Translations under genes and position numbers: made by a program
The notes under the pieces: model-generated
The model's input: only the letters and a program-made list of their open reading frames with translations
Databases searched by the model: none
Told to the model about the DNA's origin: nothing
Shown: positions 3,664 through 21,822 of the stretch, one piece after another
Layout of the letters: each line of letters begins with the position of its first letter
Position numbering within the stretch: position 1 is the stretch's first letter
DNA from: a bacterium
GTDB lineage: Bacteria > Zhuqueibacterota > Zhuqueibacteria > Zhuqueibacterales > Zhuqueibacteraceae
Assembly (NCBI GenBank): GCA_044869275.1
Contig: JBIOXB010000213.1
Coordinates: forward strand, 1-64,000
DNA length: 64,000 nt
Reading direction: 5' to 3'

Positions 3664-3717
3664 GCCTCAATCACGTGAAATAAAATATTGTTGCGGTATT
3701 CGCCGAAGTGCTCGAGA

Positions 3718-4434: not shown

Positions 4435-4608
4435 GCGATTGAAAAGGTCTGCACGCGCCATGTCATTCTGAAAGAATCTCTTTGAGCAGCGAGCACTGTG
4501 CTGGTGCGACAATGCGGGCCGTTCAAATGATATCTCACGGTTGTCCGAAATATTACAACCTAGTGAATTTCTCACCAGATGCAACAACGCACGCGAGGCG
4601 TTTTATGG

Positions 4609-4625
4609 TTGGCATCAGCTTTGCG
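4609..4625 (+). promoter_or_regulatory. Putative sigma-54 (-24/-12) promoter for the cytochrome cluster
   Basis: TTGGCATCAGCTTTGCG: GG(4611-12)-N10-GC(4623-24), one mismatch to TGGCAC-N5-TTGC; about 175 bp upstream of ATG 4798. Confidence 0.55.
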
Positions 4626-4797
4626 CAAAGCAGGGAGAGGCAAGCATGGCCGTCCAGTTAACTGCAAAAGTTTTCAACGCGATCGGTGCAAGAACGGGCA
4701 CGGGTCCGCGGTAAAAACCGTAATCACTTACGAATTCGAAAGCTCATTGTCCTTGCGTGAGAACAATTTGTTGCAAAGAATTTAAATTTTGGCTGCG

Positions 4798-5670
4798 ATG
4801 AAATACCTCTCTCCGAAAAAATGGCTGCAGGTTTTATTCGGCGCGCGCCTGGCGCATTGGGTCGATTCGCCGTCCTGGTATCGTATGTTCGCTGCCGGCG
4901 TTGTTGCGTGTGGCGTGGCTTATGGCTTGAATTGGACTCTGGCCGAAATCCGCCCTTACAACGCCTGGGGCTTGACTTACGGCACGCTCGCCGCGATCCT
5001 GATGGCGGGCGCGGGATTGCTGGGCGTGCGGCGCCGCATGAATCGCATGGCCCTGAGACTCAACTTGGGAAAGGCCCAACCCTGGCTGCAATTTCATATT
5101 TATGGCGGCACACTGGCGGCAGTGCTGATGTTCATGCACACCGGCTTCAAAATTCCGCACGGCGTGCTGACGTGGTGGCTCTGGATGTTGTCGATCATTG
5201 TCACGGCCAGCGGCATGCTGGGCGTAATCCTGCAGAAGTGGATTCCAAAAATTCTCAGCTCGGGTTTGGCGATCGAAGTTTTGTACGAAAGAATTCCGGA
5301 GCTGATCGTCGAGCTGCGCGAAAAAGCCAATGAGGTGATTCAAACCTGCACTGAGCCGGTGAAGGAGTTCTATCGCAAAGAAGTTGCCGTCGCTTTGGCC
5401 CGGCCGCAGCCGCGTTTTATTTATTATATCGACATCACCGGCGGCATTCATACGCGCGTCAAGCAATTCGACTATTTGCGCGGTTTGCTGGCCGCGGGTG
5501 AAAAACAGAAACTCGATCAATTGCAGAATTTCTACAGAACCAAGCTCGAAATCGACGCGCATTACACCCTGCAGCGCACGCTGCGCTGGTGGTTGTTTCT
5601 GCACGTGCCGCTGTCGCTCGTGGTGCTGGTGTTGCTGGGGATTCATTTGTTGTCGGTGTGGTATTATTGA
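4798..5670 (+). CDS. Polytopic membrane protein, putative di-heme b (ferric-reductase-like) transmembrane protein
   Basis: Several hydrophobic helices; two His-x13-His pairs (QFH..FMH, codons 5095/5137; FLH..GIH, codons 5602/5644). Confidence 0.6.
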   Translation: MKYLSPKKWLQVLFGARLAHWVDSPSWYRMFAAGVVACGVAYGLNWTLAEIRPYNAWGLTYGTLAAILMAGAGLLGVRRRMNRMALRLNLGKAQPWLQFHIYGGTLAAVLMFMHTGFKIPHGVLTWWLWMLSIIVTASGMLGVILQKWIPKILSSGLAIEVLYERIPELIVELREKANEVIQTCTEPVKEFYRKEVAVALARPQPRFIYYIDITGGIHTRVKQFDYLRGLLAAGEKQKLDQLQNFYRTKLEIDAHYTLQRTLRWWLFLHVPLSLVVLVLLGIHLLSVWYY

Positions 5671-5678
5671 GTTGAAAA

Positions 5679-5707
5679 CTCGTTCCCAAGCTAAGTTTGG
5701 GAACGAG
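5679..5707. repeat. REP-like palindrome (CTCGTTCCCAA..TTGGGAACGAG family)
   Basis: Perfect 11-bp stem, intergenic; relatives at 26409-26447, ~11027-11047 and ~19149-19167. Confidence 0.7.
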
Positions 5708-5754
5708 ATGGATACAAGCAAGAAGCAGGGACGCTCATCTTTCAATCTTAAACC

Positions 5755-7380
5755 TTGACTGTGGAAAAGGAAAACGGCAAGAAACCCAAAGGCACCTTCG
5801 GCGGGCGGTTGCTCTCAGTTGCAAAAGAGTATGTTTTTCCCGATGCCCGCCGCGCGGCAATCGTATTGGGTTCATTGGCGGGGCTGGCAAGCCTGGCATT
5901 TTTCGCGGCGGATTTTTTTATGCTCAAAAAGAGCCTCACCGCCAGCGGCCCGGTGTCCTCTTATCACGCCAAATTTGAAAAGGATTGCAACTCCTGCCAC
6001 GAGCCGTTCGGCGCCGTGACCAATGCGAAATGCTCGGTGTGCCACGAAAAAACCGGCGACGAGCTGGGTGTTTACACTTTTGTTGCGCATCAAATCTATC
6101 GCTCCGGCGAAGCCAGCCGCATCAAAGCCGCGACGGAAGAGGAAACCAGCGAAACCGCTTGCGTTCTTTGTCATCAAGAGCACCAGGGCCGCAACGCCTT
6201 CATCACCAGTGTGCCGGACACGCGCTGCATCAACTGCCACGTCTATGGCTCGTTCAACGTGAACCATCCGCAATTCGATTTTGTAGCGGAAAAAATACCG
6301 GACGACTCGACGCTGAAGTTCACGCATATCAAACACGTGAAAGACGTGATGAAGCGTGAAAAGCTGGTTGACGTTGAGCGCGCGTGCTTGTATTGCCACA
6401 ATCCACAGCCGGACGGCAGACATTTCGAGCCCATCGCTTTTGAGACGCATTGCCAGGCCTGCCATCTCACCGGCAACGTCGCAACCCCGGCGATGAAGAT
6501 CAAAAACCCGCTCGACTTCATGACTCCGGGCGTGGAAACTCTGGAAACGTTGCGCGCGCGCGGCGGACTCACGGCGGCGCGGCTGCGTTTCGTGAGCGCG
6601 AGCGATTTCACGACCAAGCCGGGAGATCGTATGGTCAAATCTCCCGTGCGCCATGAAGATGCGTGGATTATGGAAAACCTGCAACGGGTGCGGCAAACGC
6701 TGCTGGGCGAAAATGATTTCGATGATTTGGTGAAGGCTTCCGGCAAGCTGCGCGCGCAAAACAGCGCCGGGTTTTCAAAGGCAACTTATCAAGAGGCGCT
6801 GGACCTGCTGGAAAAATATGCCGAGGCGTTGCGCAGCCGCCCGGAGCGCGAGGTGCAACTCGAATTGGTCAAGATCGATTCCTTGGTGAAGGCCACGCGC
6901 AACAAGTTGCGCCAGCAGCCGGTGGTTTTGAAGGAAATGGCCTTGGTGCCGCCGCCGAGGCAAATGAATGCGGCATTGCTGCCGGCTCAGATCGAAGATC
7001 TCAATGCCCTGGCAGACAATCTCACCAAGCCTTGCCAGGAATGCCATACAGTTGCAAATGCCAGCATTCAGCGCGTGCAAAAAGAGCAACAAATTCTCGC
7101 GCGTGCGGAGTTCAATCATCGCGCACACATTTTGCAGCGCCGTTGCCTGGAATGCCACACCGGAATTCCAATTCTGCCGCCCGGAAATACCTCGCCGCCC
7201 AGCGGCGAAACCAAACCGGCGCCGGCCTGGCAAGATCGCGCGGCGATTCAGAACATTCCGGGGAGGGAAAACTGCCAGCACTGCCACAACCCGGCGGAGA
7301 CCTCGAATCGCTGCGTCACGTGCCATTATTTTCATCCGAACAAAACGCAGCGGGCAAGCATGTTGCTGTACTTGGATTGA
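5755..7380 (+). CDS. Membrane-anchored multiheme cytochrome c (10 CxxCH; cytochrome c3-like)
   Basis: CNSCH, CSVCH, CVLCH, CINCH, CLYCH, CQACH, CQECH, CLECH, CQHCH, CVTCH; N-terminal TM helix; start codon uncertain (TTG 5755 or GTG 5761). Confidence 0.9.
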   Translation: MTVEKENGKKPKGTFGGRLLSVAKEYVFPDARRAAIVLGSLAGLASLAFFAADFFMLKKSLTASGPVSSYHAKFEKDCNSCHEPFGAVTNAKCSVCHEKTGDELGVYTFVAHQIYRSGEASRIKAATEEETSETACVLCHQEHQGRNAFITSVPDTRCINCHVYGSFNVNHPQFDFVAEKIPDDSTLKFTHIKHVKDVMKREKLVDVERACLYCHNPQPDGRHFEPIAFETHCQACHLTGNVATPAMKIKNPLDFMTPGVETLETLRARGGLTAARLRFVSASDFTTKPGDRMVKSPVRHEDAWIMENLQRVRQTLLGENDFDDLVKASGKLRAQNSAGFSKATYQEALDLLEKYAEALRSRPEREVQLELVKIDSLVKATRNKLRQQPVVLKEMALVPPPRQMNAALLPAQIEDLNALADNLTKPCQECHTVANASIQRVQKEQQILARAEFNHRAHILQRRCLECHTGIPILPPGNTSPPSGETKPAPAWQDRAAIQNIPGRENCQHCHNPAETSNRCVTCHYFHPNKTQRASMLLYLD

Positions 7381-7454
7381 GAGAGCCTATTCCGCAGATG
7401 ATTTGTGGGGACGATTCGCGGGTCGTCTCTACGAGGTTCACAAGGAGCGTGATA

Positions 7455-8465
7455 ATGAGAGCGAAATTGTATTGCAAAACCGGCCTTCTGGCCGGTGCCA
7501 AATATGAATTCTCGCAAGGCGCGAGCATCGGGCGCAGCGGTGTCAACTCCATCGTGCTCGAGCCGCCATTGATTTCTGACGAGCACGCGCGCATTTTTTT
7601 TGATGCCAAACAAGGCGCCTATTTTCTGGAAGACATGGGCAGCCGCAACGGCACGTTTCTCGACGGCATACGCGTTGCCCGCCGTGAAAAATTGGGCGCG
7701 CTGCACGTCATTACCCTTGCCAGGAAATTCGACTTCATTTTTCAAATCGTCGCTGCCAAGCCGCCGGCCCCAGCAACGCCCCAGCCGGCGCAAGCAGAAG
7801 AGCTGCGCACGCCTCGCCAGGGGCAGCAGGCGCCGCCGGCGCAGAGCCACAAATCCGTACCTCCCGTTGAAGCAAAATTTGTGCGCGATCCCGCCGAGGA
7901 AAAAAGAATTCTCAGCCGCCCGGTTTGGAATGCCTCGCCGATTCGCGGCAAGAAAGACGGGAATGAAAACGAGGCTGTGTCCGAAAACGTCGCCGCTAAA
8001 GTCAAGCCTCGACCGGTGGTGCGCAAGCCTACCAACGGCAAAACCTTGATCGAAGAACTGCTGAAACAGGCACCGCGCGCGCCGAAAATGACGGAAGAGC
8101 AAGAGAATGGCGCCACGATGGTCGAGGCTCTCGGCCACGCGCCCCGCCGCACCGCGCTCGGGTCGCCCAAGCCGGTTTTGCATTTGGAGGCCGGAGCCAA
8201 TGGCGCAAAACAAATCTTCGCGCTCAAAGAAGGCGAGAATTTTATCGGCCGCTCACCGCTCTGCGAAATCTGCATCGATGATCCCTCCATTTCACGCAAG
8301 CATGCGGTGCTGCACATGGAGGCCGGCAAAGTGTGGGTGAAAGATTTGGGCAGCCGCAACCATACCTATGCCGGCGGAGCGACCGTGGCGGTGGAATTGG
8401 AAGTGACGAAAGATACGATGCTGCGCTTCGGCACGGTCGAGGCGAAGTTGGTGGAGATTGGGTAG
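7455..8465 (+). CDS. Double FHA-domain protein with Pro/Ala-rich linker
   Basis: AGGAG RBS before ATG 7455; FHA1 IGR..ISDEHA..DMGSRNGT; FHA2 IGR..SISRKHA..DLGSRNHT. Confidence 0.9.
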   Translation: MRAKLYCKTGLLAGAKYEFSQGASIGRSGVNSIVLEPPLISDEHARIFFDAKQGAYFLEDMGSRNGTFLDGIRVARREKLGALHVITLARKFDFIFQIVAAKPPAPATPQPAQAEELRTPRQGQQAPPAQSHKSVPPVEAKFVRDPAEEKRILSRPVWNASPIRGKKDGNENEAVSENVAAKVKPRPVVRKPTNGKTLIEELLKQAPRAPKMTEEQENGATMVEALGHAPRRTALGSPKPVLHLEAGANGAKQIFALKEGENFIGRSPLCEICIDDPSISRKHAVLHMEAGKVWVKDLGSRNHTYAGGATVAVELEVTKDTMLRFGTVEAKLVEIG

Positions 8466-8560
8466 TAGATCGTAGATAGTGGATCGTAGATCGTGGATAG
8501 TAGATCACCTATAAGCAGCCTATTCGATCCACCATCCACTATCTACGATCCACGATCCAC
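8464..8560. repeat. Inverted array of heptamer tandem repeats (TRGATMG / CKATCYA)
   Basis: tagatcg tagatag tggatcg tagatcg tggatag, followed by complementary cgatcca ccatcca ctatcta cgatcca cgatcca. Confidence 0.8.
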
Positions 8561-8603
8561 TGCCCCACGAGCTCAAGCATCGCCATTCAAAAAGGACTTT
8601 GAA

Positions 8604-10994
8604 TTGAACGCCTCTGCAGAATACACTCAGGACGGAACCCTGATTCTCGCACGCCCGGTGAAATTGCCGGAGGTGCTGGATCTGCTCGTCGTGGGCGGCG
8701 GACCGGCGGGCACGGCCGCGGCTTTTCGCGCGAAAGAGCTGGGCCTGGCCGCGCTGGTCATCGACTTCGACGACGTGATGAAGCGCATCCGGGATTACGC
8801 CAAGGACAAGCTGATCCTGCCGGATTACGGCGGCGGTGACAAAATGCAATTTCCCAACGGTGGCGCGATGGTGTCATTGCTGCATTTCACGCCGGTGGAC
8901 AAAGACGACATGTGCAAGCTATGGAAAGGATTCTATTGCGAGCACAATGTTCCGGCGCAAGTTGGGATGGAGCTGCTGGGCTTGCAGCAACACGAGGGCC
9001 TTTGGCGCGCGCGTGTTTATAATCATCACACCAAGTCCGAACAAAATCTTCGCGCCAAACATATCGTGATTGCCATCGGTCGCGGCGTGCCCCGGCGTTT
9101 CGATATTCCCGGCAAAACCGAAGGCATTGCGTACCGCCTGAGCGACGCCGCGCTGTACCTCGGCGCGCCAGCTTTGGTGATGGGCGGCGGTACTTCCGCT
9201 GCCGAGGCCGTGATCGCCGTGTCCCACGCCAAGGCCAAGGCCAATGATCCCAGCGCGGTGTATTGGTCATATCGCGGCAACAAGCTGCCCAAAGTTTCCA
9301 AGGCGCTCGCCGAAGTTTTTTTCGATGCCTATATGGGCAACGGCAACATCCGCCATTTTCCTTACAGCGAGCCCGTGGCGATCATCACGGACGCGGATCA
9401 GAAAGAATATCTCTCCTTGCGCGTCGATCGGCGGCAGATGAACGGCCGCCCGGCGGAAACCTCGCATCTCGAATTTCCGAAAAAATGCTGCATCGCCTGT
9501 ATCGGCGAAGATTTGCCTGTGGGATTTTTAGGCGCGATGGGCATCGAAATGGCTGCCTCCGGACCGGAGAACAAAAAGCGTTTCTTGGTCAATCCCATTC
9601 TGGAAACGCAGCAGACCAATGTTTATTTGATCGGCGATTTGCTGAGTCCGGCGTATTATGAAACGGAAAATTTCGCGAGCGATCCTGCGCACTATCGCGA
9701 AATCAAACGCCGCGGCAATATCAAAGCCGCGCTGCGCGACGGTGTGCTGGTGGCGGAGGCCGTGGCGCAGAAGCTGGCCGGCAAAAAAATCATTCACGTG
9801 GATTTGGATTTTGCGCCGGCACAGCCGCAGCCCGTGGAAAAGGCGGTGATCGCGCGCGCCACCGCGATGGTGGAAAAAGACGGACCGCCGCGCGAAAGCC
9901 TGCCGCCCGAGCGCGTGAGTGAAGAGTACCAGGCCTATCTCGTGCGCCTGCTCACGGGCAACGTGGAAGAGAATGAATATCTGATTCGATTGGATGGCAT
10001 CACCACCATTGGCCGCAACGGCTGCGATCTCAACTTTGCCGAAGATTCATTGCTGTCGGATCGTCATGCTTCGATCGCGCACGGCCCTGAAGGTTATTTC
10101 CTGCGCGACGACGGCAGCGCCACCGGCGTCTTCATTCGCATCAAAGAAGCGCGGCCGGTGGAAGTGACGCTGGGCAGCATCGTGCGCATCGGCAAGCAGT
10201 TTTTGTTGATCAGTACCGACGGCGGCCGGCTGGTGGTGGATCATCTCGAACAAAGCGGCAAACGCGTGCAGCGCTATCCGCTGACGGAGAACACCGTGGT
10301 GCTGGGCCGCAAAGCACCGGACATTACGCTGGACGGTGAAGACATGACGCTGTCGCGCCGGCATCTGTCCATCACCGTCAAAGGCCGCAGCATTTTTGTG
10401 AAAGATTTGGGCAGCGCCAACGGCAGTTTTCTGAAAGTGAAAAGCGCGATTGCGCTAGAAGCGGATGATCAATTCCGCGTGGGGCAACAAGTCTTCAAAT
10501 TCAATTTGAAAGAAGAAACCGTGCGCCGCTCGGTGGAATACAACACCGAGATCGGCAAGCTGCCCACGGCGGTGCTCGCGCGAGCGAAGGAAAAATCCGC
10601 TAAAGCAACCCCTGCGCCCAAGGCGAATCGCGCCCCGCAGCCCGTGAACGATTTGCCCCCCGCGCTCGCCAAACGCGCGGAAGCGGCCGAGCGGCCGGTC
10701 GAGGGCATGATCGTGACTTTCAAGAATTTCGGCAAAGTGTGCGCGTTCAAGCCCGGCCAAACGATTTGCGACATTGCCGAAAAGAACGGCGTGAAGATCA
10801 AAGCCGATTGCCACATCGGCAGTTGCGGCATGGATCCCATTCGCGTTCTTTCCGGCAAAGAGAATTTGAACCCCATTGGTGATGAGGAAAAAGGCACGCT
10901 GGAGGACATCAATAAACTGAAGCCGGGAGAATACCGGCTGGCGTGTATGGCGAAGCCGAAAGGGGCGGTGGTGGTGGAGGTAGTGGAGCAGTGA
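8604..10994 (+). CDS. Fusion: thioredoxin-reductase-like FAD/NAD(P)H oxidoreductase + two FHA domains + C-terminal plant-type [2Fe-2S] ferredoxin domain
   Basis: GGGPAG and GGGTSA dinucleotide motifs, YLIGD; FHA motifs IGR..LSDRHA..DDGSATG and LGR..LSRRH..DLGSANG; CHIGSCGMD...RLAC; TTG 8604 follows AAGGA. Confidence 0.85.
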   Translation: MNASAEYTQDGTLILARPVKLPEVLDLLVVGGGPAGTAAAFRAKELGLAALVIDFDDVMKRIRDYAKDKLILPDYGGGDKMQFPNGGAMVSLLHFTPVDKDDMCKLWKGFYCEHNVPAQVGMELLGLQQHEGLWRARVYNHHTKSEQNLRAKHIVIAIGRGVPRRFDIPGKTEGIAYRLSDAALYLGAPALVMGGGTSAAEAVIAVSHAKAKANDPSAVYWSYRGNKLPKVSKALAEVFFDAYMGNGNIRHFPYSEPVAIITDADQKEYLSLRVDRRQMNGRPAETSHLEFPKKCCIACIGEDLPVGFLGAMGIEMAASGPENKKRFLVNPILETQQTNVYLIGDLLSPAYYETENFASDPAHYREIKRRGNIKAALRDGVLVAEAVAQKLAGKKIIHVDLDFAPAQPQPVEKAVIARATAMVEKDGPPRESLPPERVSEEYQAYLVRLLTGNVEENEYLIRLDGITTIGRNGCDLNFAEDSLLSDRHASIAHGPEGYFLRDDGSATGVFIRIKEARPVEVTLGSIVRIGKQFLLISTDGGRLVVDHLEQSGKRVQRYPLTENTVVLGRKAPDITLDGEDMTLSRRHLSITVKGRSIFVKDLGSANGSFLKVKSAIALEADDQFRVGQQVFKFNLKEETVRRSVEYNTEIGKLPTAVLARAKEKSAKATPAPKANRAPQPVNDLPPALAKRAEAAERPVEGMIVTFKNFGKVCAFKPGQTICDIAEKNGVKIKADCHIGSCGMDPIRVLSGKENLNPIGDEEKGTLEDINKLKPGEYRLACMAKPKGAVVVEVVEQ

Positions 10995-11306
10995 AATGGG
11001 TGACTTGCACAGTGTTATTCTTCTTGCTCCCACGCTCCGCGTGGGAGTGTCTCCAAGACGCTCAGCGGCGAATACTTTCATCTGCGAACCCAAATGTGAC
11101 GCGGAGCGCCAATCATGCGTCACGACGTGGAACGTCGTGACGAGTAGCTGAAAGCAATGAGTGACTTCGCAGATTTTCGCAGAGGTGCACCCATCTGCAA
11201 AAATCTGCGAAATCTGCGGACTGATGATCTTCAATGATTTTCTTCTTTGGGCCAGGGCGAGCAGTAACTGGAACTTTAGGATGAATCTTTCAGGAGTGAT
11301 GTTATC

Positions 11307-12968
11307 ATGCGCGTGCATCTCAGGATGAACTCCGTGCTGGAGAGGAGCAATCTTTTCATTCAAATCGCCTGCCTCTGCGTGATGTTCGGCGTTTTGATTC
11401 TCATGATGTTTTCCGCTTCGGGCTGCAAATCCAACAACATGCCCACCAGCTCCGTGCCCACCAATACTCCGGTGTTGACCGTGCAAGACGTGCAAACCCT
11501 CATGGCACAGGCCGTGGAACAAGCGGTGCGCCTCAATGAAAAAATCAACGTCGCCGTGCTCGACCGCGAGGGAAATATTCTCGGTGTCTTTCGCATGACC
11601 GGCGTGCAGCCCATCGCCGCGGCAGCGCAATCCTTGTTCGGCGAAATTGCCAAAGCCCGCACCGCGGCCTATGCCAGCAGCAATCAAAATGCGTTCACGA
11701 CTTTGACCGGTTGCTACATCACGCGCAGCCATTTTCCGCCGGTAGCCGTCTCCAACAACACACCGGCCGGCCCGTTGTTCGGTGTGCCGTTTTCGCAGCG
11801 CAGCGACAGCGACATTCAACCCAACGGCGGCCCGTTGCCTCCGCTGGGTCCGGCGCAACCGCCCGCGCCCCCACAGCCGGGATTGACCAACATTCCCGGC
11901 GGCGTGCCGGTTTATAAAAACGGCCGGCTTGCAGGTGGATTGGGTATCAGTGGTGGCTCGGATACGTTTACGCTGCTGGGCCCCATCAACGATGTTTGCG
12001 CCGGCGTCACCAAAGACGAAATCATCGCGCTCGGGGCTTTGGGCGGTTATGCTACGCCCTCGGGCATTCGTAGCGATGTGATCTTGCTCGACGGTATTGC
12101 ACTGCTTTATCAAAACGCGGCCACGCCGCCGGGAAACTTCACCTTTCAATTTTTGGATCTGGCACAATACGGCGCGGTCGATCCGAATTTCCCCATTCGC
12201 CAAACGCCGCCGGCAAATTTTCCCATGCAGGGCCCGGTGGTGTGGAACAACGGCCAGTTTGATTTCAGCCCGCGCGCCGGGCAAGTGTTGACGCAAGCCG
12301 ATGTGCAGCAGATTCTCACCAACGCCGTGAATCGTGCGAATAATACGCGCGCCGCCATCCGGCAGCCGGTGGGCAGCGCCGCGCGCGTGTTCATCGCGGT
12401 CTGCGATCTGAACGGCATGATTCTCGGCATGTGGCGTACGCCGGAAGCCACGATGTTCAGCTATGACGTCTCGGCGCAAAAGGCGCGCACCTCCGTGGCT
12501 TTTAGCGATCCGAATGACGGCATGGGCATGCTGCTGCGCAGTTGGCTGGGTTTGCCGGCGGGCACGCCGCTGGCCGCGACCACGCGCGCCATTGGGTTTT
12601 TGAGCCAGCGCTATTATCCGCCGGGCCAGGATCAAGGCACGCCGTTGAGCACCATGCCGCAGTCCATGGGGCCGATGTATCTGTATGTTGACGGCCAATT
12701 CGATTTTCAATACATGCGCCTGCTGCAAACGCGCCCGCCGTTCCAAAACGGCATTCAGATTTTTCCGGGCGGCATCCCGCTGTATAAAAACGGCCAGCTT
12801 GCCGGCGGCATCGGCGTGAGCGGCGACGGCGTGGATCAGGACGATTATGTCGCGGCAGGCGGCACGCTCGGCTTCGAAGCGCCGGCAAACATTCGTGCCG
12901 ATCAATTTGCTTACAAAAACGCGAATCTGCCTTACCTCAAATTTCCGCGCCGGCCGAATCTGAATTAG
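11307..12968 (+). CDS. Tandem GlcG/HbpS-like (heme-binding) domain lipoprotein
   Basis: Two copies of LT..DVQ....AV..A....AV.D..G.ILG..R..KART...PGG.P.YKNG.LAGG.G.SG; hydrophobic stretch ending in lipobox SASGC; exact start uncertain. Confidence 0.8.
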   Translation: MRVHLRMNSVLERSNLFIQIACLCVMFGVLILMMFSASGCKSNNMPTSSVPTNTPVLTVQDVQTLMAQAVEQAVRLNEKINVAVLDREGNILGVFRMTGVQPIAAAAQSLFGEIAKARTAAYASSNQNAFTTLTGCYITRSHFPPVAVSNNTPAGPLFGVPFSQRSDSDIQPNGGPLPPLGPAQPPAPPQPGLTNIPGGVPVYKNGRLAGGLGISGGSDTFTLLGPINDVCAGVTKDEIIALGALGGYATPSGIRSDVILLDGIALLYQNAATPPGNFTFQFLDLAQYGAVDPNFPIRQTPPANFPMQGPVVWNNGQFDFSPRAGQVLTQADVQQILTNAVNRANNTRAAIRQPVGSAARVFIAVCDLNGMILGMWRTPEATMFSYDVSAQKARTSVAFSDPNDGMGMLLRSWLGLPAGTPLAATTRAIGFLSQRYYPPGQDQGTPLSTMPQSMGPMYLYVDGQFDFQYMRLLQTRPPFQNGIQIFPGGIPLYKNGQLAGGIGVSGDGVDQDDYVAAGGTLGFEAPANIRADQFAYKNANLPYLKFPRRPNLN

Positions 12969-13020
12969 TGCTCGTTCCGCCCAAGCTGGAATCGAATTTT
13001 TGGAGTTTGTCATTCAGTGG

Positions 13021-13137
13021 GAATCAGACTGTGTGAAAACGCTTGGTTTCAACGCCGGCTGAGCTTGTCGAAGCCGGATTTTTTGAGCTTAGCACCCTTC
13101 GACAAGCTCAGGGTGCGGCATTCCCAAGTTTCCACAA
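13021..13137. mobile_element. MITE-like element, copy 1 (right end degenerate)
   Basis: Near-identical to 15064-15189; internal inverted repeat CTGAGCTTGTCGAAG..CTTCGACAAGCTCAG. Confidence 0.7.
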
Positions 13138-13159
13138 AATGATTTGCGTATCAGGAAAT

Positions 13160-14995
13160 ATGCCGAATAAATTTTGGTGTCGCGTGCTGTGGAGTGGTGT
13201 GTGCGCATTGCTGTTGTTTTGTGAATCTGCCTGGAGCCAGGCCGCCCGTGATAGTTCCGCTGTGAACAGGAGAAACGCTGCGATTGAGCGAACGCGCCAG
13301 CAGAAGCGCAGCAAGGCCTCTGCGCCGCGGCGCTCCAAGGCCGTGCGTCCGGCTAGGCGTGATTCCACGGCAACGTCACAGGAAAAAACGAGCGCAGCGG
13401 CAGCACCGGCTGCTGCGCAACGCAACGCCGGCGCGGTGCCGGATTTCGTGCCGCTCACCGACCGTTGGGAAGGCATCACGCCGCCGCCTTACGAGCTGAA
13501 TGTCAAGGGCAAGTGGTACGATCCCTACAATCAGAACAAGCTCAAGGGTGATTATCCGATTCTGGGCCAGAACACTTTTCTGCTTTTGACGGCCAGTTCG
13601 GAAAGTTTTGCCGAGGCCGCGCGTGTGCCCACGCCCAGCGGCATAAGCACGAACAATCCGGTGAGCACGAATTTTTTCGGCAACGGCGATCGCATACTGC
13701 TGTCGCAGTTTTTCCGTTTGAGCTTGGAATTGTATCACGGCCAGGTCGCGTTCCGCCCGCGCGATTGGGAAATCCGATTCACCGGTGCATACAATCGCAA
13801 CTATCTTGATTTGCGCGAGAACAACGCCGTCAACATCAATCCCGCCAGCGGGTCCGACCGCTACGACCGCCAATTCGCGCTGCAGGAATTGTCCCTGGAG
13901 AAGCGTCTGCTCGATCTCAGCGAGCATTTTGATTTCGTGTCGCTGCGCGTGGGCATTCAACGGTTCAGCAGCGATTTTCGCGGTTTTATTTTCAACGACT
14001 TCAACTTGGGCGCGCGATTGTTCGGCAGCTTCGCTTCCAACCGTTACCAATACAATCTCGCCTATTTTGGCATGCTCGAAAAGGATACCAACAGCGAATT
14101 GAATACCGTCTTCGATGATCGCACGCAGGAAGTCTATGTTGCGAATTTGTACAAGCAGGATTTGTTCACGCTGGGCTATACCGGGCAAGTCAGCTTTCAC
14201 TATAACAAAGATCGCGCGAGCACTTACAACGACGACAACAATTTTCCCGTGCGCCCGGCGATCATCGGTACTTCACGGCCGCACGAGATCAACGCCTATT
14301 ACCTCGGCTGGACCGGCGACGGGCATTTCGGCAGATTCAACGTGAATCACGCGCTCTATCAAGTTTTTGGGTATGACACCTTCAACTCGCTGGCGAATCA
14401 ACGCACCACCATCAACGCGCAAATGGCGGCGCTCGAGCTTTCATATGACGTCGATTGGAAACGCTACCGCGTTTCCGCGCTCTACGCTTCGGGCGATCCC
14501 AATCCCCTCAACGGCTCGGCGAACGGTTTTGACGCGATCGTCGAACAGCCCTTCTTTGCCGGTGGGCCGTTCAGCTATTGGAACGTGCAAGCGATTGGCT
14601 TGTTGGGCGTGCGCCTGGTGAATCGACTGAGCCCGTTTCCCGATTTGACCCCGAGCAAGACTGAAGGCCAGGCGAATTTCGTCAATCCCGGCATCATGAT
14701 TTTCAACGCGGCGTTCGATGCGGAAGTCACACCCAAGATCAAATTGATTCTCAACTCGAGCTATTTGCGCTTCGCCAACACGGCGCCTTTGCAACAGTTT
14801 TTGAATCAACCGGCGATTCGCAACGACATCGGCATCGACTATGGCCTGGGCATTATCTATCGTCCGTTTTTGAACAACAACGTCAATTTTACCCTGTCGG
14901 CGACGGGACTGACCCCGCTCGGCGGATTTCAGGATCTCTACGACACCAAGCAGACACAGTACACGATTTTTTCGACGCTGGTGTTGACGTATTGA
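13160..14995 (+). CDS. Probable outer-membrane beta-barrel protein
   Basis: Signal peptide (..CESAWSQA), low-complexity linker, aromatic-rich amphipathic strands, terminal IFSTLVLTY resembling a beta-signal; ATG 13160 after AGGA. Confidence 0.7.
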   Translation: MPNKFWCRVLWSGVCALLLFCESAWSQAARDSSAVNRRNAAIERTRQQKRSKASAPRRSKAVRPARRDSTATSQEKTSAAAAPAAAQRNAGAVPDFVPLTDRWEGITPPPYELNVKGKWYDPYNQNKLKGDYPILGQNTFLLLTASSESFAEAARVPTPSGISTNNPVSTNFFGNGDRILLSQFFRLSLELYHGQVAFRPRDWEIRFTGAYNRNYLDLRENNAVNINPASGSDRYDRQFALQELSLEKRLLDLSEHFDFVSLRVGIQRFSSDFRGFIFNDFNLGARLFGSFASNRYQYNLAYFGMLEKDTNSELNTVFDDRTQEVYVANLYKQDLFTLGYTGQVSFHYNKDRASTYNDDNNFPVRPAIIGTSRPHEINAYYLGWTGDGHFGRFNVNHALYQVFGYDTFNSLANQRTTINAQMAALELSYDVDWKRYRVSALYASGDPNPLNGSANGFDAIVEQPFFAGGPFSYWNVQAIGLLGVRLVNRLSPFPDLTPSKTEGQANFVNPGIMIFNAAFDAEVTPKIKLILNSSYLRFANTAPLQQFLNQPAIRNDIGIDYGLGIIYRPFLNNNVNFTLSATGLTPLGGFQDLYDTKQTQYTIFSTLVLTY

Positions 14996-15063
14996 GGTTG
15001 GATGCTGGTTACTGATTACTGGTGTTCGCAGGTGGAGTTCTACTCTGCAAATGTCATTTGTAA

Positions 15064-15189
15064 GAATCAGACTGTGTGAAAACGCTTGGTTCAACGCCGG
15101 CTGAGCTTGTCGAAGCCGGATTTCTTGAACTTAGCACCCTTCGACAAGCTCAGGGTGCGGCATTCCCATGTTTTCACACAGTCTGAATC
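15064..15189. mobile_element. MITE-like element, copy 2 (intact terminal inverted repeats)
   Basis: GAATC-AGACTGTGTGAAAAC...GTTTTCACACAGTCT-GAATC: 15-bp perfect TIR flanked by GAATC on both sides. Confidence 0.75.
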
Positions 15190-15398
15190 TTGGTAAGCAT
15201 TGAGCACAATACTCAAATGAACCACTATTAGTATGAAGATCGGTTCTTGTTCGAAGGCCTGGAGCGAGAACATTTCAACCGTTAACCCAATCCAATCATA
15301 GAAATGAATGGGCCCCAAAATGGCGATCTGCGCTAGGACGGAGACCATCCTAATGAGATGGCAACCGAGATGAATCTAAATCAGGACGATTTTGGATC

Positions 15399-18300
15399 AT
15401 GAAATTTAACATAAACACTTTTCTGATCTTATTGTTTACCGCGCCACTTTTTGCACAAACCGATATTGCCCGCCAATCCCAAGCCGAGGCCGATCGCAAG
15501 AGCAAAGGCTGCCTCACCTGCCACACCGGCATCGAGAGCATGCACAAGGCAACTTCGGTAAAACTGGGCTGCGTGGATTGCCACCTTGGCAACCCCGAAG
15601 GCTTGACGCGCGAAGAAGCGCACGTCAAGCCGCGCTTTCCCGAGCGCTGGCCCACGGCGGCGAATCCCGAGCGTACCTTTTCTTTGTTGAATGACGAGAG
15701 CCCTGATTTCATTCAGTTCATCAATCCCGGTGATCTACGTGCCGCCGAGCGCGCTTGTGGCGCTTGCCACGCCGCGCAGGTGTTGAGCGTGCGCAAAAGC
15801 ATGATGACGACTTCGACGCTGCTGTGGGGAGGCGCGGCGTACAACAACGGCATTCTTCCGCTCAAAAATTATGTTCTCGGCGAAAGCTACAGCCGCGAGG
15901 GCCAGCCGCAGATGATCAACACCGTACCGCCGCCCACAGCCGAAGAGAAGTTGAAAAAAGGCGTGCTGCCCTTCATCGTGCCTTTGCCGCGCTGGGAAAT
16001 CACCCAGCCGGGAGACAACTTTCGCAGCTTTGAGCGCGGCGGCCGCTTGCCGCGCATCAATCCTTCGGATATCGGCATTCCGAATCCCTTGGAAGAACCG
16101 GGCCGTCCCGACAACAAACTCAGCGATCGCGGCTTGGGCACGCAATTGCTCATCAGCTCGCCGGTGTTGAATCTGCAAAAGACGCGATTGAACGATCCCC
16201 ATCTTTCGTTCCTGGGCACGAATGATCATTCCGGCGACTATCGTTCGAGCGGGTGCAGCTCCTGCCACGTGGTTTATGCCAACGATCGCTCGCCCGTGCA
16301 CTCCGGGCCGTATGCGAAATATGGCAATCGCGGCTTCACCGTCACGGAGGATAAAAACATTTCCACGAAAGAATCCGGCCATCCGTTGCTGCATCAATTT
16401 ACGCGCGCGATTCCCACGAGCCAGTGCATGACCTGCCACATGCATCAGCCCAACGGCTTCATCAATACCTTTCTCGGATTTCAGATGTGGGATTATGAAA
16501 GCGACGGAAAGTGGATGTATCCGCCGCGTGAAGTTGAGCTCACGTCGGCGGAAAAGTTCGCACGCCTCGACGCCAACCCCGAAGAAGCGGTATTGCGCGG
16601 CAATTGGGGCGATCCGGATTTCCTGCGCAGCGTGGCAAAATTGAATCCCAAGCTCAAGAACACGCAGTTTGCGGACTATCACGGCCACGGCTGGATTTTC
16701 CGCGCGGTGTTCAAGAAGGATCGTAAAGGCAATTTGCTCGATAAGGATGATAAAATCATCCCGCCGGAATCGCGGCACAAGTTTCACGGAGTGGTGCCGC
16801 TGGAGGACGGCGAAAATGATATTTGTAACGACAATTGCCGCGACGCGCAAAAAGCCGTGCATTTGAAGGACATTCACGCGGAAAAAGGCATGCACTGCGT
16901 CGATTGCCATTTCGAGCAGGACAACCACGGCAATGGCAAGCTCTACGGCGAGTTTCACAATGCCATTGAAGTGCGCTGCCAGGATTGCCACGGCAACGTG
17001 TTGCAAGCCGCGACGCTGCGCACCTCCAACAACGCCGCGTCCGCGGGCGGTACGAATTTGCTCGAGACCTTTACGCCGTTCGGGGAAAGGCGTTTTGTCA
17101 AGCGCGGCGACCGCATCATGCAACGCTCGATGGTCACCGATACCTTGATGTGGGAAGTGCCGCAAGTGGTTGACATCGTCAATCCCGAATCGAAGCATTA
17201 CAATGCCAAAGCGGCCGCCGCCAAGCTCGTGGCCACCGGCGGCGGCGAATGGGCGCGGCCCATGGCCGCGGCGCTGCTCGCGCACGGGGACAGCAAAATG
17301 GAATGCTACACCTGCCACACCTCGTGGGTGACGAACTGCTTCGGCTGCCATTTGCCGCAGCAGGCCAATTGGAAAAAGGAAATGAATCACTTCGAGGGCG
17401 AGGAGTCGCGCAATTGGACCACGTATAATCCGCAAGTGTTGCGCGACGACGGTTTCATGCTCGGCATCAGCGGCAGCACGAAGGGGAATAAAGTCCTGCC
17501 GGCGCGTTCTTCCAGCGCTATCATGCTCAGCTCGCGCAACGCCAATCGCGAGCAGATTTACAACCAGCAAGCGCCGATCTCCGCCCCGGGTTACAGCAGC
17601 CAGGCGTTCAACACGCACATGCCGCACACGGTGCGCGCCACCGAGACGCGCACGTGCAGCGATTGCCATCTTTCCGAAAAGAATGACAACAACGCGTGGC
17701 TGGCGCAAGTGCTGTTGCAGGGCACCAACTTCGTTAACTTTATCGGTAAGTATGCTTACGTCGGGCTGGGCAAAGACGGCGTGGAAGCCGTACAAGTGGC
17801 CGAAGGCGAGGAGCCGCAAGCGGTGATTGGAAGCTATTTGCACAGGCTCGCTTTTCGTGAAGATTATCAAAAGCACGTCAGGAATCGCAAGCAGCTGGAA
17901 ACGGCCTATCATCACGGCGGCTCGAACATTCAAAGCCTGCAATTACGTGGCGAGTATTTGTACACGGCCAATGGCGAGGATGGTTTGCGCGTGTATGACG
18001 TGGCCAACATCGACAACAAGGGATTTTCCGAGAGAATCGTTTCAGCACCGGTTTCGCCGTTTGGGCAGGATACGCAAGTAGACACCAAATTCGCGACGGC
18101 GGTGGCCTTGCCGACGAACATGCCGGTGGATACAGATCGCGAATACCGGCCCGAAAACCAAGAGCAGGGGCCGCTGCATCCTCTGTATAGTTACGCCTAT
18201 GTCACTGACAAGTTTGAAGGCTTGATTCTCGTGGATGTAATGACACTGGTGGACAATAATCCGCGCAACAACTTTTTGGAACGCAAGCTGGCGTTCAATC

Positions 18301-19088
18301 CCAGAGGCGCGTTGAACGGCGCGGTGAATCTGGCGCTCGCCGGCAACTACGCCTATGTTCTTTGCGACGCCGGCCTGGTGATCGTGAGCATTGCCGAGCC
18401 GTTAAAGCCCAAGATCGTGGCGAAAGTGGAAACCCCGCTGCTCAAGAAGCCGAAAGCAATTGCGATCCAATTCCGCTATGCCTTTGTGTGCGATATGGAA
18501 GGCTTAAAGGTGATCGAGGTCACTTCTCCGGAAAATCCGCAGTTGGTGAAAGGCAGTTTCGTGCCGTTGAAAGAGGCGTATGACGTCTATGTCGCGCGCA
18601 CGTATGCATATGTCGCCGCGGGCAGGCAAGGCCTGGTGATCATCAACGCCGAAAATCCCGAAGCCCTGCGCCTCGATCAAGTTTATAATTACGGCAAACG
18701 CCTCAACGACGCGCGCGGGGTGAAAGTCGGCGCGGCGTATGCGAGCATCTTTGCGTACGTTGCCGACGGCCGCAACGGCCTGCGCGTGATTCAACTGCTA
18801 TCGCCGGACAATCCCGCGTACCTCGGCTTCAGCCCGCGGCCGCAGCCGCGCTTGATTGCGACCCATCACACCCACGGTCCGGCCCTGGCCGTTTCCAAAG
18901 GCATGGATCGCGACCGCGCTGTTGACGAAAGCGGCAACCAAGTGAGTGTTTTCGGCAGGCTCGGCTCACGGCCTTTCACGCTCGAAGAGCAGCGCCGCCT
19001 GTATCTGCGCGATGGCAAAATCTGGAGGGTCTCGGATGATTTTTGGAAGAAGAAGGAGGCGCCGCCGCAGACGAGCCGGACGGAGTAG
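15399..19088 (+). CDS. Exported multiheme cytochrome c (10 CxxCH) with C-terminal LVIVD-repeat beta-propeller
   Basis: Signal peptide (..TAPLFA-Q); CLTCH, CVDCH, CGACH, CSSCH, CMTCH, CVDCH, CQDCH, CYTCH, CFGCH, CSDCH; repeats YAYV....GL.(I/V)(I/V)(D/N/S). Confidence 0.9.
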   Translation: MKFNINTFLILLFTAPLFAQTDIARQSQAEADRKSKGCLTCHTGIESMHKATSVKLGCVDCHLGNPEGLTREEAHVKPRFPERWPTAANPERTFSLLNDESPDFIQFINPGDLRAAERACGACHAAQVLSVRKSMMTTSTLLWGGAAYNNGILPLKNYVLGESYSREGQPQMINTVPPPTAEEKLKKGVLPFIVPLPRWEITQPGDNFRSFERGGRLPRINPSDIGIPNPLEEPGRPDNKLSDRGLGTQLLISSPVLNLQKTRLNDPHLSFLGTNDHSGDYRSSGCSSCHVVYANDRSPVHSGPYAKYGNRGFTVTEDKNISTKESGHPLLHQFTRAIPTSQCMTCHMHQPNGFINTFLGFQMWDYESDGKWMYPPREVELTSAEKFARLDANPEEAVLRGNWGDPDFLRSVAKLNPKLKNTQFADYHGHGWIFRAVFKKDRKGNLLDKDDKIIPPESRHKFHGVVPLEDGENDICNDNCRDAQKAVHLKDIHAEKGMHCVDCHFEQDNHGNGKLYGEFHNAIEVRCQDCHGNVLQAATLRTSNNAASAGGTNLLETFTPFGERRFVKRGDRIMQRSMVTDTLMWEVPQVVDIVNPESKHYNAKAAAAKLVATGGGEWARPMAAALLAHGDSKMECYTCHTSWVTNCFGCHLPQQANWKKEMNHFEGEESRNWTTYNPQVLRDDGFMLGISGSTKGNKVLPARSSSAIMLSSRNANREQIYNQQAPISAPGYSSQAFNTHMPHTVRATETRTCSDCHLSEKNDNNAWLAQVLLQGTNFVNFIGKYAYVGLGKDGVEAVQVAEGEEPQAVIGSYLHRLAFREDYQKHVRNRKQLETAYHHGGSNIQSLQLRGEYLYTANGEDGLRVYDVANIDNKGFSERIVSAPVSPFGQDTQVDTKFATAVALPTNMPVDTDREYRPENQEQGPLHPLYSYAYVTDKFEGLILVDVMTLVDNNPRNNFLERKLAFNPRGALNGAVNLALAGNYAYVLCDAGLVIVSIAEPLKPKIVAKVETPLLKKPKAIAIQFRYAFVCDMEGLKVIEVTSPENPQLVKGSFVPLKEAYDVYVARTYAYVAAGRQGLVIINAENPEALRLDQVYNYGKRLNDARGVKVGAAYASIFAYVADGRNGLRVIQLLSPDNPAYLGFSPRPQPRLIATHHTHGPALAVSKGMDRDRAVDESGNQVSVFGRLGSRPFTLEEQRRLYLRDGKIWRVSDDFWKKKEAPPQTSRTE

Positions 19089-19870
19089 GGGGGAGTGTAA
19101 ACGAAGATTGAAGATTGAGGATGGAAGATCGTAGAATCGGTTGGCAGACTCGTTCCGGCGATCTTCGCCGGAATGCCTTGGGGGACGCTCTGCGTCCCGT
19201 GTTTGTGTTGGACCAAAAAATGACACAAAACATTCGAGGCAGAGCATCAAAAAGACATTAGCGCGCTGAACGTGGTAACAAGAAGATCCCCGTACGCAAT
19301 TTTCAAAGTCGTCAATGTGGCAAAATTTTCTTGTTAGTTATTTGAACACGGATCGCGAGGATTAAACTGATTGATACGGATATGTGAAGAGCAAATCGGC
19401 TAAAATTTGTTGAATTAGCGTTAGGAAATCAACAATGAACGAAAAAGAAAAACTGGCCGTTCTAAGGAGAGTTTAGCGGAGCGAATACTCCGGAGCAGCG
19501 TACTTCCGTGGTGCCCTCTGCTAGTCTTACAAACCAGACGGTCCCAAAGACCGAGAAAGAGGGTGACATGATGAAAGTAAAAAACAATATGGATGCTTCC
19601 CATTTACACATTAATTGGAAACACCTTTTCCTGACGGTCTTGCACCTTGTGTATTTCTTTTGTCGGCCTCAAGTGACAAATTCATTACAGTAAAGGGCAC
19701 CGCCGCGGCGCTGCCCTAAATTCTATCTTCATTTGGTACGGAAACGCGAAAGGGCGCAAGACTCGAAGTTTTTCGCTCCGTTCGACGTTAATGCGAATAC
19801 GCTAACGCTATACGACTTTGTTAAGTGTTATTCGATTCACTGATTTAGTCTTAAGCTATTTAAGTAGTAT

Positions 19871-20407: not shown

Positions 20408-20673
20408 ATCACCTGATATTGTTGGATTTGCACTCAACGGAGAAGCTGCGATTGGTCGAAGATCGCTGGGATGATCTTGCCTCCATTACCGAGGCCGTAC
20501 CTATTCATGAGTGGCAAACACAAGAACTGGCTTGCCGAGGAGCCAACCTCACGAGCAGTCCTGCATCGGCCCATTCCTGTTTGAGGGCTGCAAGAGAAGT
20601 CAAGTGCAGGATTCACAGCCGCGATGGTCAGCAAATTGATGGTCGCTCCAGAAGCAAAGTAGGACAGATGTGA
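20404..20673 (+). pseudogene. Degenerate putative addiction-module antitoxin
   Basis: L.STEKLRLVED.WDDLA....P..EWQ.QEL..R pattern with apparent substitutions at conserved positions and a run-on C-terminus. Confidence 0.65.
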
Positions 20674-21325: not shown

Positions 21326-21329
21326 TATT

Positions 21330-21746: not shown

Positions 21747-21822
21747 GGTGAATCCGTCGATACTATGAAGAATTCGCTTGAGAAAAAATAATGAACGATT
21801 TAAACGCCTTCCCGGATGAATT

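Follow-up and report, generated by a model that had tools for sequence, protein, structure and literature searches.

In the porin-cytochrome systems MtrCAB, PioAB and Geobacter Pcc, multihaem cytochromes are encoded beside an outer-membrane barrel and act with periplasmic relay cytochromes. The MtrB-type sheath has 26 strands and is wide enough for a decahaem cytochrome. In the NOX and ferric-reductase flavocytochromes, and in MsrQ-Fre, two stacked bis-histidine haems b are held by parallel helices with a histidine spacing of about 13 residues; they are fed by a flavoprotein that uses reduced nicotinamide adenine dinucleotide (phosphate), NAD(P)H, and export is electrogenic. Cyc2 is a single polypeptide with one haem that oxidises Fe(II); its cytochrome sits at the periplasmic mouth of a small barrel, and the substrate enters the pore. 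Here we compare with these systems a cluster of seven co-oriented + strand genes, G1 to G7, found between 4.8 and 19.1 kb of a 64,000-nucleotide stretch (hereafter the window; positions 1 to 64,000 of contig JBIOXB010000213.1, assembly GCA_044869275.1) from an uncultured bacterium of the Zhuqueibacterota, called KSB1 below.

The listing of open reading frames (ORFs), their translation, Pfam and motif counts agree with the contents given in an earlier reading of the DNA letters (the sequence-only reading). G1 is a membrane protein with a His-x13-His pattern, G2 an anchored decahaem cytochrome c, G3 an FHA-FHA protein, G4 a flavoprotein with two FHA domains and a [2Fe-2S]-like domain, G5 a lipoprotein, G6 a barrel and G7 an exported decahaem cytochrome fused to a propeller. 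The reading that we favour, with slightly less than even confidence, is that KSB1 has here its own version of a widespread electron-export chain, which would lead from NAD(P)H through the inner membrane to a cytochrome at an outer-membrane barrel and would be gated. It is based on domain content, conservation, gene fusions and synteny, from which every cofactor, contact, electron step, direction and acceptor is predicted.

Like MtrCAB, PioAB and Pcc, the cluster encodes multihaem cytochromes next to an outer-membrane barrel. It differs from them in its 18-strand, AlgE-like barrel and in its input, which is apparently cytoplasmic NAD(P)H and Fe-S clusters, not quinol. None of the family models for MtrB/PioB, MtrA/DmsE and MtrC reaches its cut-off in the proteins of the window; G2 scores 19.7 bits on TIGR03508, the cut-off of which is 192.2, and G7 has neither an MtrC-domain match nor a lipobox. 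The histidine spacing of about 13 residues and the predicted cytoplasmic NAD(P)H flavoprotein input are shared with NOX and MsrQ-Fre. However, the flavoprotein is of the Pyr_redox type, is encoded as a separate chain and would act via Fe-S clusters, and its electrons would go to a multihaem chain and not straight to O2 or Fe(III). A small barrel and a cytochrome are also found in Cyc2, but here they are separate genes, the cytochrome is a decahaem protein and the flow is probably outward.

A named gene set of similar composition is described in a preprint by Elbon, Stewart and Glass (10.1101/2023.11.21.568154), where ptdABCDEFG is called a 'putative porin-cytochrome complex of unknown function' and extracellular electron transfer is suggested. 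In the ptd passages of that preprint, the FAD/NAD(P) oxidoreductase PtdC (FAD, flavin adenine dinucleotide) resembles G4, the ferric-reductase-like membrane protein PtdF resembles G1, the decahaem PtdG resembles G2 and the porin PtdB resembles G6. The tetrahaem PtdD and PtdE, a 4Fe-4S protein that binds cyclic nucleoside monophosphates (cNMP), resemble two further proteins, G8 and X, described in the next section. This likeness is one of described domains. By domain architecture only, G4, G1, G2 and G6 are found in the window, X and G8 on contig C125 of the same genome, and all of them in one row at another locus, L054. The two sets also differ. PtdA is a pentahaem protein with a beta-sandwich, whereas G7 is a decahaem protein with 10 CxxCH motifs and an LVIVD propeller; the ptd passages describe neither an HbpS-like lipoprotein nor an FHA protein, and the gene order is another one.

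The second relevant preprint, on Ferrigenium straubiae (10.64898/2026.01.22.701106), deals with a three-gene module containing an FHA-nonahaem cytochrome (NHC) that is expressed in this Fe(II) oxidiser. In the passages on this module, FHA domains are said to have been previously unreported with multihaem cytochromes, and the authors favour inward flow to quinone. As described there, the module shares with our cluster a single-anchor multihaem cytochrome with cytosolic FHA, a five-helix membrane protein without domain match and a cytosolic 4Fe-4S protein. It differs in having nine haems and an FHA domain fused to the cytochrome, and the same passages describe no barrel or propeller partner. Its closest counterparts, by description, are the FHA-decahaem fusions that we find at loci L043, L072 and L083. 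According to the passages concerned, function is untested for both ptd and NHC.

Our literature search returned no functional study of such a cluster, and only these two preprints were relevant. The claim of the sequence-only reading that no characterised system matches is upheld, but the core gene set already bears the name ptd in the passages cited above. The cluster is real, uncharacterised, and a local variant of a widespread, named gene set. What is new here is the presence of FHA domains inside the donor flavoprotein together with a separate FHA-FHA protein; the outer block of HbpS-like lipoprotein, AlgE-like barrel and decahaem-propeller protein; and the evidence from gene fusions and module swaps.

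A recurring gene set

A pattern scan of species-representative genomes, seeded with a 14-row alignment of G7, matched at least 601 stretches, at least 590 of which encode a G7 relative. Among the best 80 of these loci, G7 shows 49-60% identity over nearly its full length, bar three closer KSB1-like ones, and the record titles name Acidobacteriota, Planctomycetota, Alpha-, Beta- and Gammaproteobacteria, Myxococcales and others. The G7 family comprises at least 8000 proteins at E≤1e-50; all names among the matches listed are 'hypothetical protein'. The haem domain alone retrieves 2814 representative clusters at E≤0.001. Full-length G7 was detected in 21 genomes of a phylum sample of 121, full-length G4 in 19 and a close G1 in 23. 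These counts include genome G001, and the related-region set also includes G014, both flagged as unpublished; no conclusion rests on them alone.

The seven genes of the sequence-only reading are not the complete unit. Two more genes belong to it, X and G8, and they are encoded as an adjacent pair on the - strand of the 8.7-kb contig C125 of the same genome, G000 (1370-4195, locus L038). X is a cytoplasmic protein of about 540 amino acids (536 in this genome). It carries two domains for cNMP binding and four Cys clusters like those of DmsB/NrfC, which would hold four [4Fe-4S] clusters. G8 is a c554-like multihaem cytochrome of 404 amino acids with three CxxCH motifs, as against four or five in the G8-like ORFs of the Proteobacteria, Acidobacteriota and Planctomycetota loci inspected. 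In the closest genome, X and G8 are likewise missing from the 10 kb downstream of G7 (L040). On C125 the X/G8 pair is followed by an exported protein without family match, which runs off the contig end.

The neighbours of G7 were counted by tblastn with the proteins of the window (E≤1e-8, at least 30% coverage) at 38 loci that extend for 8 kb or more to either side. As the loci are related to one another and weak relatives fall below the thresholds, the counts should be read as descriptive. G6 is present at all 38 loci, G5 at 34, X at 31, G1 at 25, G2 at 24 and G8 at 21. G4 is present at four (two of the four matches are only 22-24% identical), a PP2C gene at three and G3 at one. The controls, unrelated WbqC-like and Big_1 genes upstream of G1, were found at none of the 38. 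The neighbours of G7 thus recur in distant phyla and the controls do not, which indicates that the grouping is more than chance.

An inner and an outer block can be recognised in the phylum regions, X-G1-G2-G3-G4 and G5-G6-G7-G8, which travel together in either order. It could be argued that they are two independent neighbours, with G1-G4 as a redox module of the inner membrane and G5-G7 as a module of the outer membrane that has nothing to do with it. The variable order of the blocks is consistent with this, as are genomes G041 and G130, which have G8, X, G1 and G4 but no G7 match, and six well-flanked loci that have G6 and G7 without X or G1. However, at 32 of the 38 well-flanked loci, in several phyla and several gene orders, no more than 10 kb separate G7 from X or G1, and we consider two unrelated modules very unlikely.

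The order of the window, G1 to G7, recurs in three of ten fetched KSB1 regions (L013, L016 and L018). Two of the ten, both of genus g3, are without G4 in the cluster; in each of the five genomes of this genus, G4 is located on a different contig. Elsewhere the order is G7-G8-X-G1-G2-G3-G4 (G002:C7, G055:C1 and G114:C68), and at L054 ten genes stand in one row, G5-G6-G7-G8-X-G1-G2-G3-G4-PP2C. Judged by their distribution, G3 and G4 are lineage-specific additions.

The predicted route from NAD(P)H to the periplasm

G4 (8493-10994, + strand; 833 amino acids) is the proposed cytoplasmic electron donor. Pfam recognises Pyr_redox_2 at residues 63-384, two FHA stretches and Fer2 at 749-823, that is, an FAD/NAD(P)H oxidoreductase followed by two FHA domains and a [2Fe-2S]-like domain. 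Two GGG-type dinucleotide motifs and the cysteines C759, C773, C778 and C818 of the C-terminal domain are invariant in eight of eight homologues. These homologues start at about residue 36, which suggests that the true start of G4 may lie later. A CIAC sequence (C-x-x-C, residues 333-336) in the flavoprotein domain is also invariant in all eight; it occupies what we take to be the position of the 'ATG' motif, where it might form a redox-active disulfide or provide an additional ligand.

G1 (4798-5670, + strand, in an ORF that opens at 4789; 290 amino acids) is an inner-membrane protein with about five hydrophobic segments. The His-x13-His pattern seen earlier is indeed there, and twice: H100/H114 and H269/H283. 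The four histidines are invariant in 19 of 19 aligned sequences, which include three paralogues that are 18-23% identical. Peaks of hydropathy occur at 30-48, 59-77, 127-145 and 266-284, and the His pairs belong to the third and the fifth of the hydrophobic segments. According to the positive-inside rule, these two segments would run in the same direction, from the cytoplasm outward. With four conserved histidines on two membrane helices, G1 is predicted to be able to hold two haems b. Ferric-reductase and NOX domains have one haem near each membrane face, and the geometry of G1 fits this arrangement. We regard G1 as a candidate two-haem cytochrome b of the ferric-reductase or cytochrome b561 kind.

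The family models considered for G1 were PF01794, PF01292 and PF14358. Among the 19 sequences, sub-threshold matches to Ni_hydr_CYTB were found in 13 (best E 0.00036), to DUF4405 in 12 (best E 0.00022) and to Ferric_reduct in four (best E 0.0021, the threshold of PF01794 not being reached). The three families belong to one Pfam clan. The nearest Atlas cluster to G1 is named 'ferric reductase like transmembrane component' (0.98), which is a lead only. A sequence search of solved structures with G1 returned chance-level rows only, and the G1 profile returned nothing below E 0.25.

Gene fusions place X at this membrane protein. In six relatives (G025, G036, G055, G074, G076 and G106), X and G1 share an uninterrupted reading frame 819-992 amino acids long; at L019 two cNMP_binding domains and Fer4 are confirmed by Pfam ahead of the G1 part. 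This natural fusion puts the Fe-S clusters at the cytoplasmic face of G1. Two other identifications were rejected. The frames of about 830 amino acids that hold G1 had been candidates for CbcL-kind fusions of G2 with G1, but the fused partner is X (Pfam). Neither G1 nor X is ExtO (NF040968), since the only match to this model in the genome is one of 24.7 bits, below the cut-off, inside G7.

In other phyla, X is in turn joined to different flavin modules. A Pyr_redox_2/3 flavoprotein domain is fused to its N-terminus at L047, L058, L072 and L043. At L079 and L094, X begins with a NuoG-like 2Fe-2S/4Fe-4S N-terminus, and at L079 a NuoE/F-like protein of the flavin mononucleotide (FMN) type is also encoded beside it. 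Three different NAD(P)H-type modules thus converge on X and G1. No other argument for a link between the chain and cytoplasmic NAD(P)H is as strong.

On the periplasmic side, G2 (5755-7380, + strand; 541 amino acids) has 10 CxxCH motifs, generic c3/c7-type Pfam matches and a single hydrophobic segment near the N-terminus (residues 34-52), as expected of a membrane-anchored periplasmic decahaem cytochrome c. Its homologues retain the 10 motifs at every locus inspected.

In the chain that we propose, G4 would oxidise NAD(P)H at its FAD and pass the electrons via its [2Fe-2S] domain to the four [4Fe-4S] clusters of X, which would dock on G1. The haem b pair of G1 would be held by H100 and H269 on the cytoplasmic side and by H114 and H283 on the periplasmic side. 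Electrons would cross the inner membrane via G1 with no obligatory quinone step, much as in a NOX or ferric-reductase domain, and would then be relayed to G7 by the anchored decahaem G2 and the small G8. The corresponding part of the sequence-only reading, from an NAD(P)H flavoprotein through Fe-S clusters and a two-haem membrane protein to an anchored decahaem cytochrome, finds support in the invariant histidines, the fusions and the module swaps, all of them features of sequence.

Alternatively, G1 could be a quinol:cytochrome c oxidoreductase like CbcL, CbcBA or NarI, with X and the flavoprotein as a regulatory or side branch. The weak matches to Ni_hydr_CYTB, the family of the quinone-reactive b subunit, are in line with this, as is the existence of clusters without G4, and the passages on the look-alike module in the Ferrigenium preprint (10.64898/2026.01.22.701106) propose a quinone link. 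On the other hand, X is covalently fused to G1 in six genomes, and elsewhere it is fused to, or lies beside, three unrelated NAD(P)H-type modules, which is hard to explain unless the main partner is cytoplasmic. A quinone-linked function is, in our view, unlikely.

Within the phylum, paralogous three-gene operons at L021 (G036:C60) and L026 (G058:C76) encode a Fer4-Pyr_redox_3 flavoprotein of 434 amino acids, a G1-like protein with the same four histidines and a cytochrome c, which has 20 haems at L021 and eight at L026. This suggests a wider family of modules leading from NAD(P)H to periplasmic cytochromes.

The outer block and the probable direction of flow

G5 (11307-12968, + strand) is a tandem HbpS/GlcG-like lipoprotein. 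It is HbpS-like in two stretches (E 7.8e-27), and its N-terminal hydrophobic segment is followed by a lipobox-like ...FSASGC.

G6 (13160-14995, + strand), described as barrel-like in the sequence-only reading, does model as a barrel. The AlphaFold2 model, built from a 39-row alignment, is an all-beta outer-membrane barrel of 18 long antiparallel strands that extend from residue 139 to the C-terminus (mean predicted local distance difference test, pLDDT, 73.5; predicted template-modelling score 0.69). The best Foldseek matches are AlgE chains (PDB 3rbh and others; E 3.8e-15, template-modelling score to target 0.67-0.71), followed by OprD-type and other porins. Identity to AlgE is only 11-13%, however. 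G6 has no Pfam or NCBIfam match at E≤0.01, Alginate_exp (PF13372) and the MtrB/PioB models included, no alginate genes lie nearby, and a sequence search of solved structures yielded chance-level rows only. The Atlas lists an Alginate_exp/'alginate export' cluster near G6 (0.95), again a lead only. A conserved N-terminal stretch, residues ~95-140, is modelled with low confidence and may be a docking peptide. Judged by the model, the barrel is too small and narrow to sheath a cytochrome.

G7 (15399-19088, + strand; 1229 amino acids) starts with a Sec-type signal peptide. Its 10 CxxCH motifs all lie before residue 760 and are followed by LVIVD repeats that form the beta-propeller part. Ten further histidines, outside these motifs, are invariant in 14 of 14 sequences. 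They would suffice for ten bis-histidine haems, which favours electron transfer over catalysis without settling the matter. The model of residues 1-800 has a mean pLDDT of 68.5. When its haem core was compared with solved folds, octahaem tetrathionate reductase and NrfA-type enzymes being the candidate relatives, the only VIA match was a weak one to octahaem tetrathionate reductase 1sp3 (Z 3.5, root-mean-square deviation 5.7 over 269 residues). The G7 sequence matches no solved structure at E≤0.1, and its profile finds short haem-motif or propeller matches only. A match to ExtM of 90.8 bits covers residues 465-669 only and compares with a cut-off of 800.

In line with G6 and G7 working together, their ORFs overlap at L009, L010 and L054, and complex prediction for G6 residues 90-611 with G7 residues 770-1229 gave weak support. 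The score was 0.48 (runs of 0.64, 0.00 and 0.48), as against 0.00 for the best of three controls; agreement between the runs is at least 28% of contacts, and the partner has a pLDDT of at least 75. In the benchmark, 116 of 157 solved complexes attain the mark, as do 2 of 215 mismatched pairs, and passes at 0.60 or below comprise 18 of the 157 solved complexes plus both passing mismatches; custom alignments were used here, for which these benchmark counts hold only roughly.

According to the sequence-only reading, electrons pass from the barrel to a surface cytochrome. This step is the weakest link of that proposal, since the barrel has an AlgE-like fold of 18 strands, unlike an MtrB-type sheath, and G7 has neither a lipobox nor a T9SS tail. 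In our reading, G7 would act at the outer membrane together with the lipoprotein G5 and the barrel G6, and G6 would more likely admit or release a small soluble or ionic acceptor, reduced by G7 at the periplasmic mouth, than conduct electrons. It is the narrowness of the barrel that favours a channel for a small acceptor served by G7 from the periplasm, that is, the logic of Cyc2 reversed.

Surface exposure of G7 is the main rival to the small-acceptor channel. The cluster would then be a true extracellular conduit, in which G6 and G5 hold G7 on the surface, a mineral or other insoluble acceptor is bound by the propeller of G7, and electrons pass the outer membrane via a G6-bound haem segment. 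Several findings are compatible with this: G6 adjoins G7 in 68 of 69 loci with at least 2 kb upstream; the complex prediction points, weakly, the same way; four Planctomycetota homologues of G7 have a lipobox-like N-terminus; and the genome has 20 ORFs with at least four CxxCH motifs. In the relevant passages of a further preprint (10.1101/2022.05.06.490989), LVIVD repeats are associated with the cell surface. Against it stand the 18 strands of an AlgE-like barrel, compared with the 26 of MtrB, and the absence of CxxCH from both G6 and G5. Moreover, G7 of the window, like most homologues, has a plain Sec signal with neither a lipobox nor the C-terminal domain of the type IX secretion system (T9SS), its 49-60% identity across phyla is unusually high for a surface cytochrome, and it also occurs in records named after genera that we take to be aerobic. 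A surface conduit seems rather unlikely to us.

As to direction, the small-acceptor reading has the electrons flowing outward. The opposite, an uptake of electrons into the cytoplasm from Fe(II), a cathode or some other outside donor, could draw on the fact that porin-cytochrome systems can run in either direction. With NAD(P)H as the cytoplasmic partner, however, only outward flow would be downhill in the absence of a coupling device. Reducing NAD(P)+ from donors at the level of Fe(II) is uphill by several hundred mV, and inward electron movement opposes the membrane potential. Because of this, and because no coupling device is encoded, outward flow is preferred and inward flow appears highly improbable, even though Ferrigenium straubiae, an Fe(II) oxidiser, expresses a three-gene module of similar architecture according to the passages concerned (10.64898/2026.01.22.701106).

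Proposed control by phosphothreonine and cyclic nucleotide

An outward drain would cost the cell both NAD(P)H and membrane potential, and gating is therefore to be expected. G3 (7455-8465, + strand, with an alternative start at 7398) is a cytoplasmic protein without hydrophobic segment that has two FHA domains (Pfam E 1.2e-30; 106.1 bits, cut-off 20.7). A longer G3 ORF, from 7032, was rejected as the gene, as it overlaps G2. The FHA domains of G4 score 67.9 bits on the same cut-off. GR, SxxH and NG, which we take to be the phosphothreonine-binding residues, are present in the G3 translation, and the GR, SRxH and NG of the second FHA domain of G4 are invariant in eight of eight homologues. With an FHA profile built from sequences of this analysis, only six ORFs were found in the whole 6.67-Mb genome, and two of them are G3 and G4.

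Signs of the same theme are met at other loci. A Stp1/IreP-type PP2C gene directly follows G4 at L022, L023, L029 and L054 (at L023, 230.5 bits against a cut-off of 230). At the proteobacterial Fontimonas locus L047, a Hanks-type kinase gene adjoins those of PP2C and a G8-like cytochrome, and at the Limnobacter locus L058 a CHASE2-cyclase gene adjoins that of the cNMP-binding X. The FHA profile finds FHA-like ORFs at 15 of the best 80 loci, three of them fused to a decahaem cytochrome (L043, L072 and L083; confirmed by Pfam for L043). The L043 protein (3714-5945, from a Thermoanaerobaculia record) is homologous to G2 and has an FHA domain at both ends (Pfam 18-91 and 667-732), which implies a second membrane pass back to the cytoplasm.

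In the gated chain, the FHA domains of G3 and G4 would read phosphothreonine set by Ser/Thr kinases and PP2C, while X would read a cyclic nucleotide. Phosphothreonine control had been part of the sequence-only reading. As a theme it is sustained, on the level of sequence, by the PP2C genes after G4, the kinase-PP2C pair of L047 and the FHA-decahaem fusions. A possible source of the marks on which G3 and G4 would depend, though unlinked to the cluster, is a - strand operon on contig C64 of the same genome (1-9088, locus L120). It encodes a Hanks-type kinase with PEGA, an FHA/FG-GAP propeller protein, PP2C and a second kinase.

A number of observations weigh against a gated export chain of the kind preferred here. 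For the gate, there is no kinase or phosphatase gene in the whole window. For the donor, G4 is unlinked to the cluster in eight of the 19 genomes that have it, and it was not found in G025, G036, G074 and G076, which keep the X-G1 fusion, G2 and G5-G8; since such genomes keep the remainder of the system, the chain does not depend on G4. Both X and G8 are encoded outside the window. At the membrane step, G1 has no Pfam or NCBIfam match above threshold and its His-bearing stretch 96-116 is only weakly hydrophobic. Proteins of the NarI and CbcL type share the Fe-S/cytochrome b layout, and a quinone site on G1 is thus conceivable. At the outer end, Foldseek finds nothing at E≤0.001 for the haem-domain model of G7, which leaves this domain without a convincing solved fold and makes a catalytic role possible. 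The prediction of a complex between barrel and cytochrome, a check proposed along with the sequence-only reading, gave weak support and no interface.

A more ambitious form of the export chain can be formulated, which we hold to be possible but doubtful. It would be a quinone-independent, NOX-like, trans-envelope export route, running from NAD(P)H through FAD, Fe-S clusters, two haems b and about 23 c-type haems to a barrel-docked decahaem-propeller protein. It would be switched by phosphothreonine (FHA, PP2C and Hanks kinases) and by cyclic nucleotide. Many phyla, aerobes included, would employ it either to dispose of electrons under regulation or to reduce acceptors in the periplasm or outside the cell. 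Such an exit for reducing power, independent of the respiratory chain, might serve iron acquisition, redox balancing or superoxide production. If the export chain that we favour exists, a large, so far unnamed share of bacterial multihaem cytochromes would constitute one regulated wire, and a direct route from NAD(P)H to the envelope that bypasses the quinone pool would be a new entry point for models of extracellular electron transfer. It would bear on the cycling of iron and manganese in soils and sediments and possibly on bacterial extracellular superoxide production. The KSB1 variant would be the clearest case of post-translational gating, with FHA inside the donor flavoprotein, and these domains make control of electron export by Ser/Thr phosphorylation directly testable. 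Fontimonas sp. SYSU GA230001 (L047), the one record of the best 80 loci that is not labelled a metagenome-assembled genome, has the cluster together with kinase and PP2C and could serve as a test organism.

Gene spacing and surroundings

The span 4609..19088 that had been assigned to the cluster ends correctly with G7, but begins some 190 nucleotides upstream of the G1 start. A short ORF in this leader, 4646-4714, is separate from G1. The gaps between genes are 27-84 nucleotides within G1-G4, and 312, 191 and 403 nucleotides before G5, G6 and G7, respectively. In these three long gaps, the pattern scan lists no terminator-like site on the + strand. The strongest + strand hairpin within 4300-19600 in that scan lies 3' of G7, at 19182-19198; it has seven pairs, six of them G-C, is terminator-like by consensus match only, and likely marks the end of the transcription unit. 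A promoter scan gave seven sigma-70-like sites, as against 7.2 ± 2.9 in shuffled sequence, which is no signal.

Directly 3' of G7, the stretch 19100-23100 has small ORFs and a guanine plus cytosine content of about 45%, whereas that of the cluster is about 57%. The ORFs include one that resembles an addiction-module antitoxin gene (20404-20673, PF09720) and, at 21330-21746, a DUF2283 gene. Relatives have G8 and X at this place, and the stretch may have been inserted there. No gene for a kinase, a phosphatase or another cytochrome lies between 19 and 64 kb of the window, the remainder of which is housekeeping. Elsewhere in the genome, a second multihaem cluster is found on contig C117 at about 14.7-30.2 kb, with ORFs of 19, 11, 9, 6 and 4 CxxCH motifs.

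Large secreted FlgD_ig proteins are encoded at 580-3663, 26481-27638 and 50356-54411 of the window. The first of these also has a T9SS sorting tail; the organism thus has the type IX route, which G7 does not use. On the - strand, at 33510-38444, a sucrose synthase gene lies beside one for a sucrose-phosphate synthase/phosphatase fusion.

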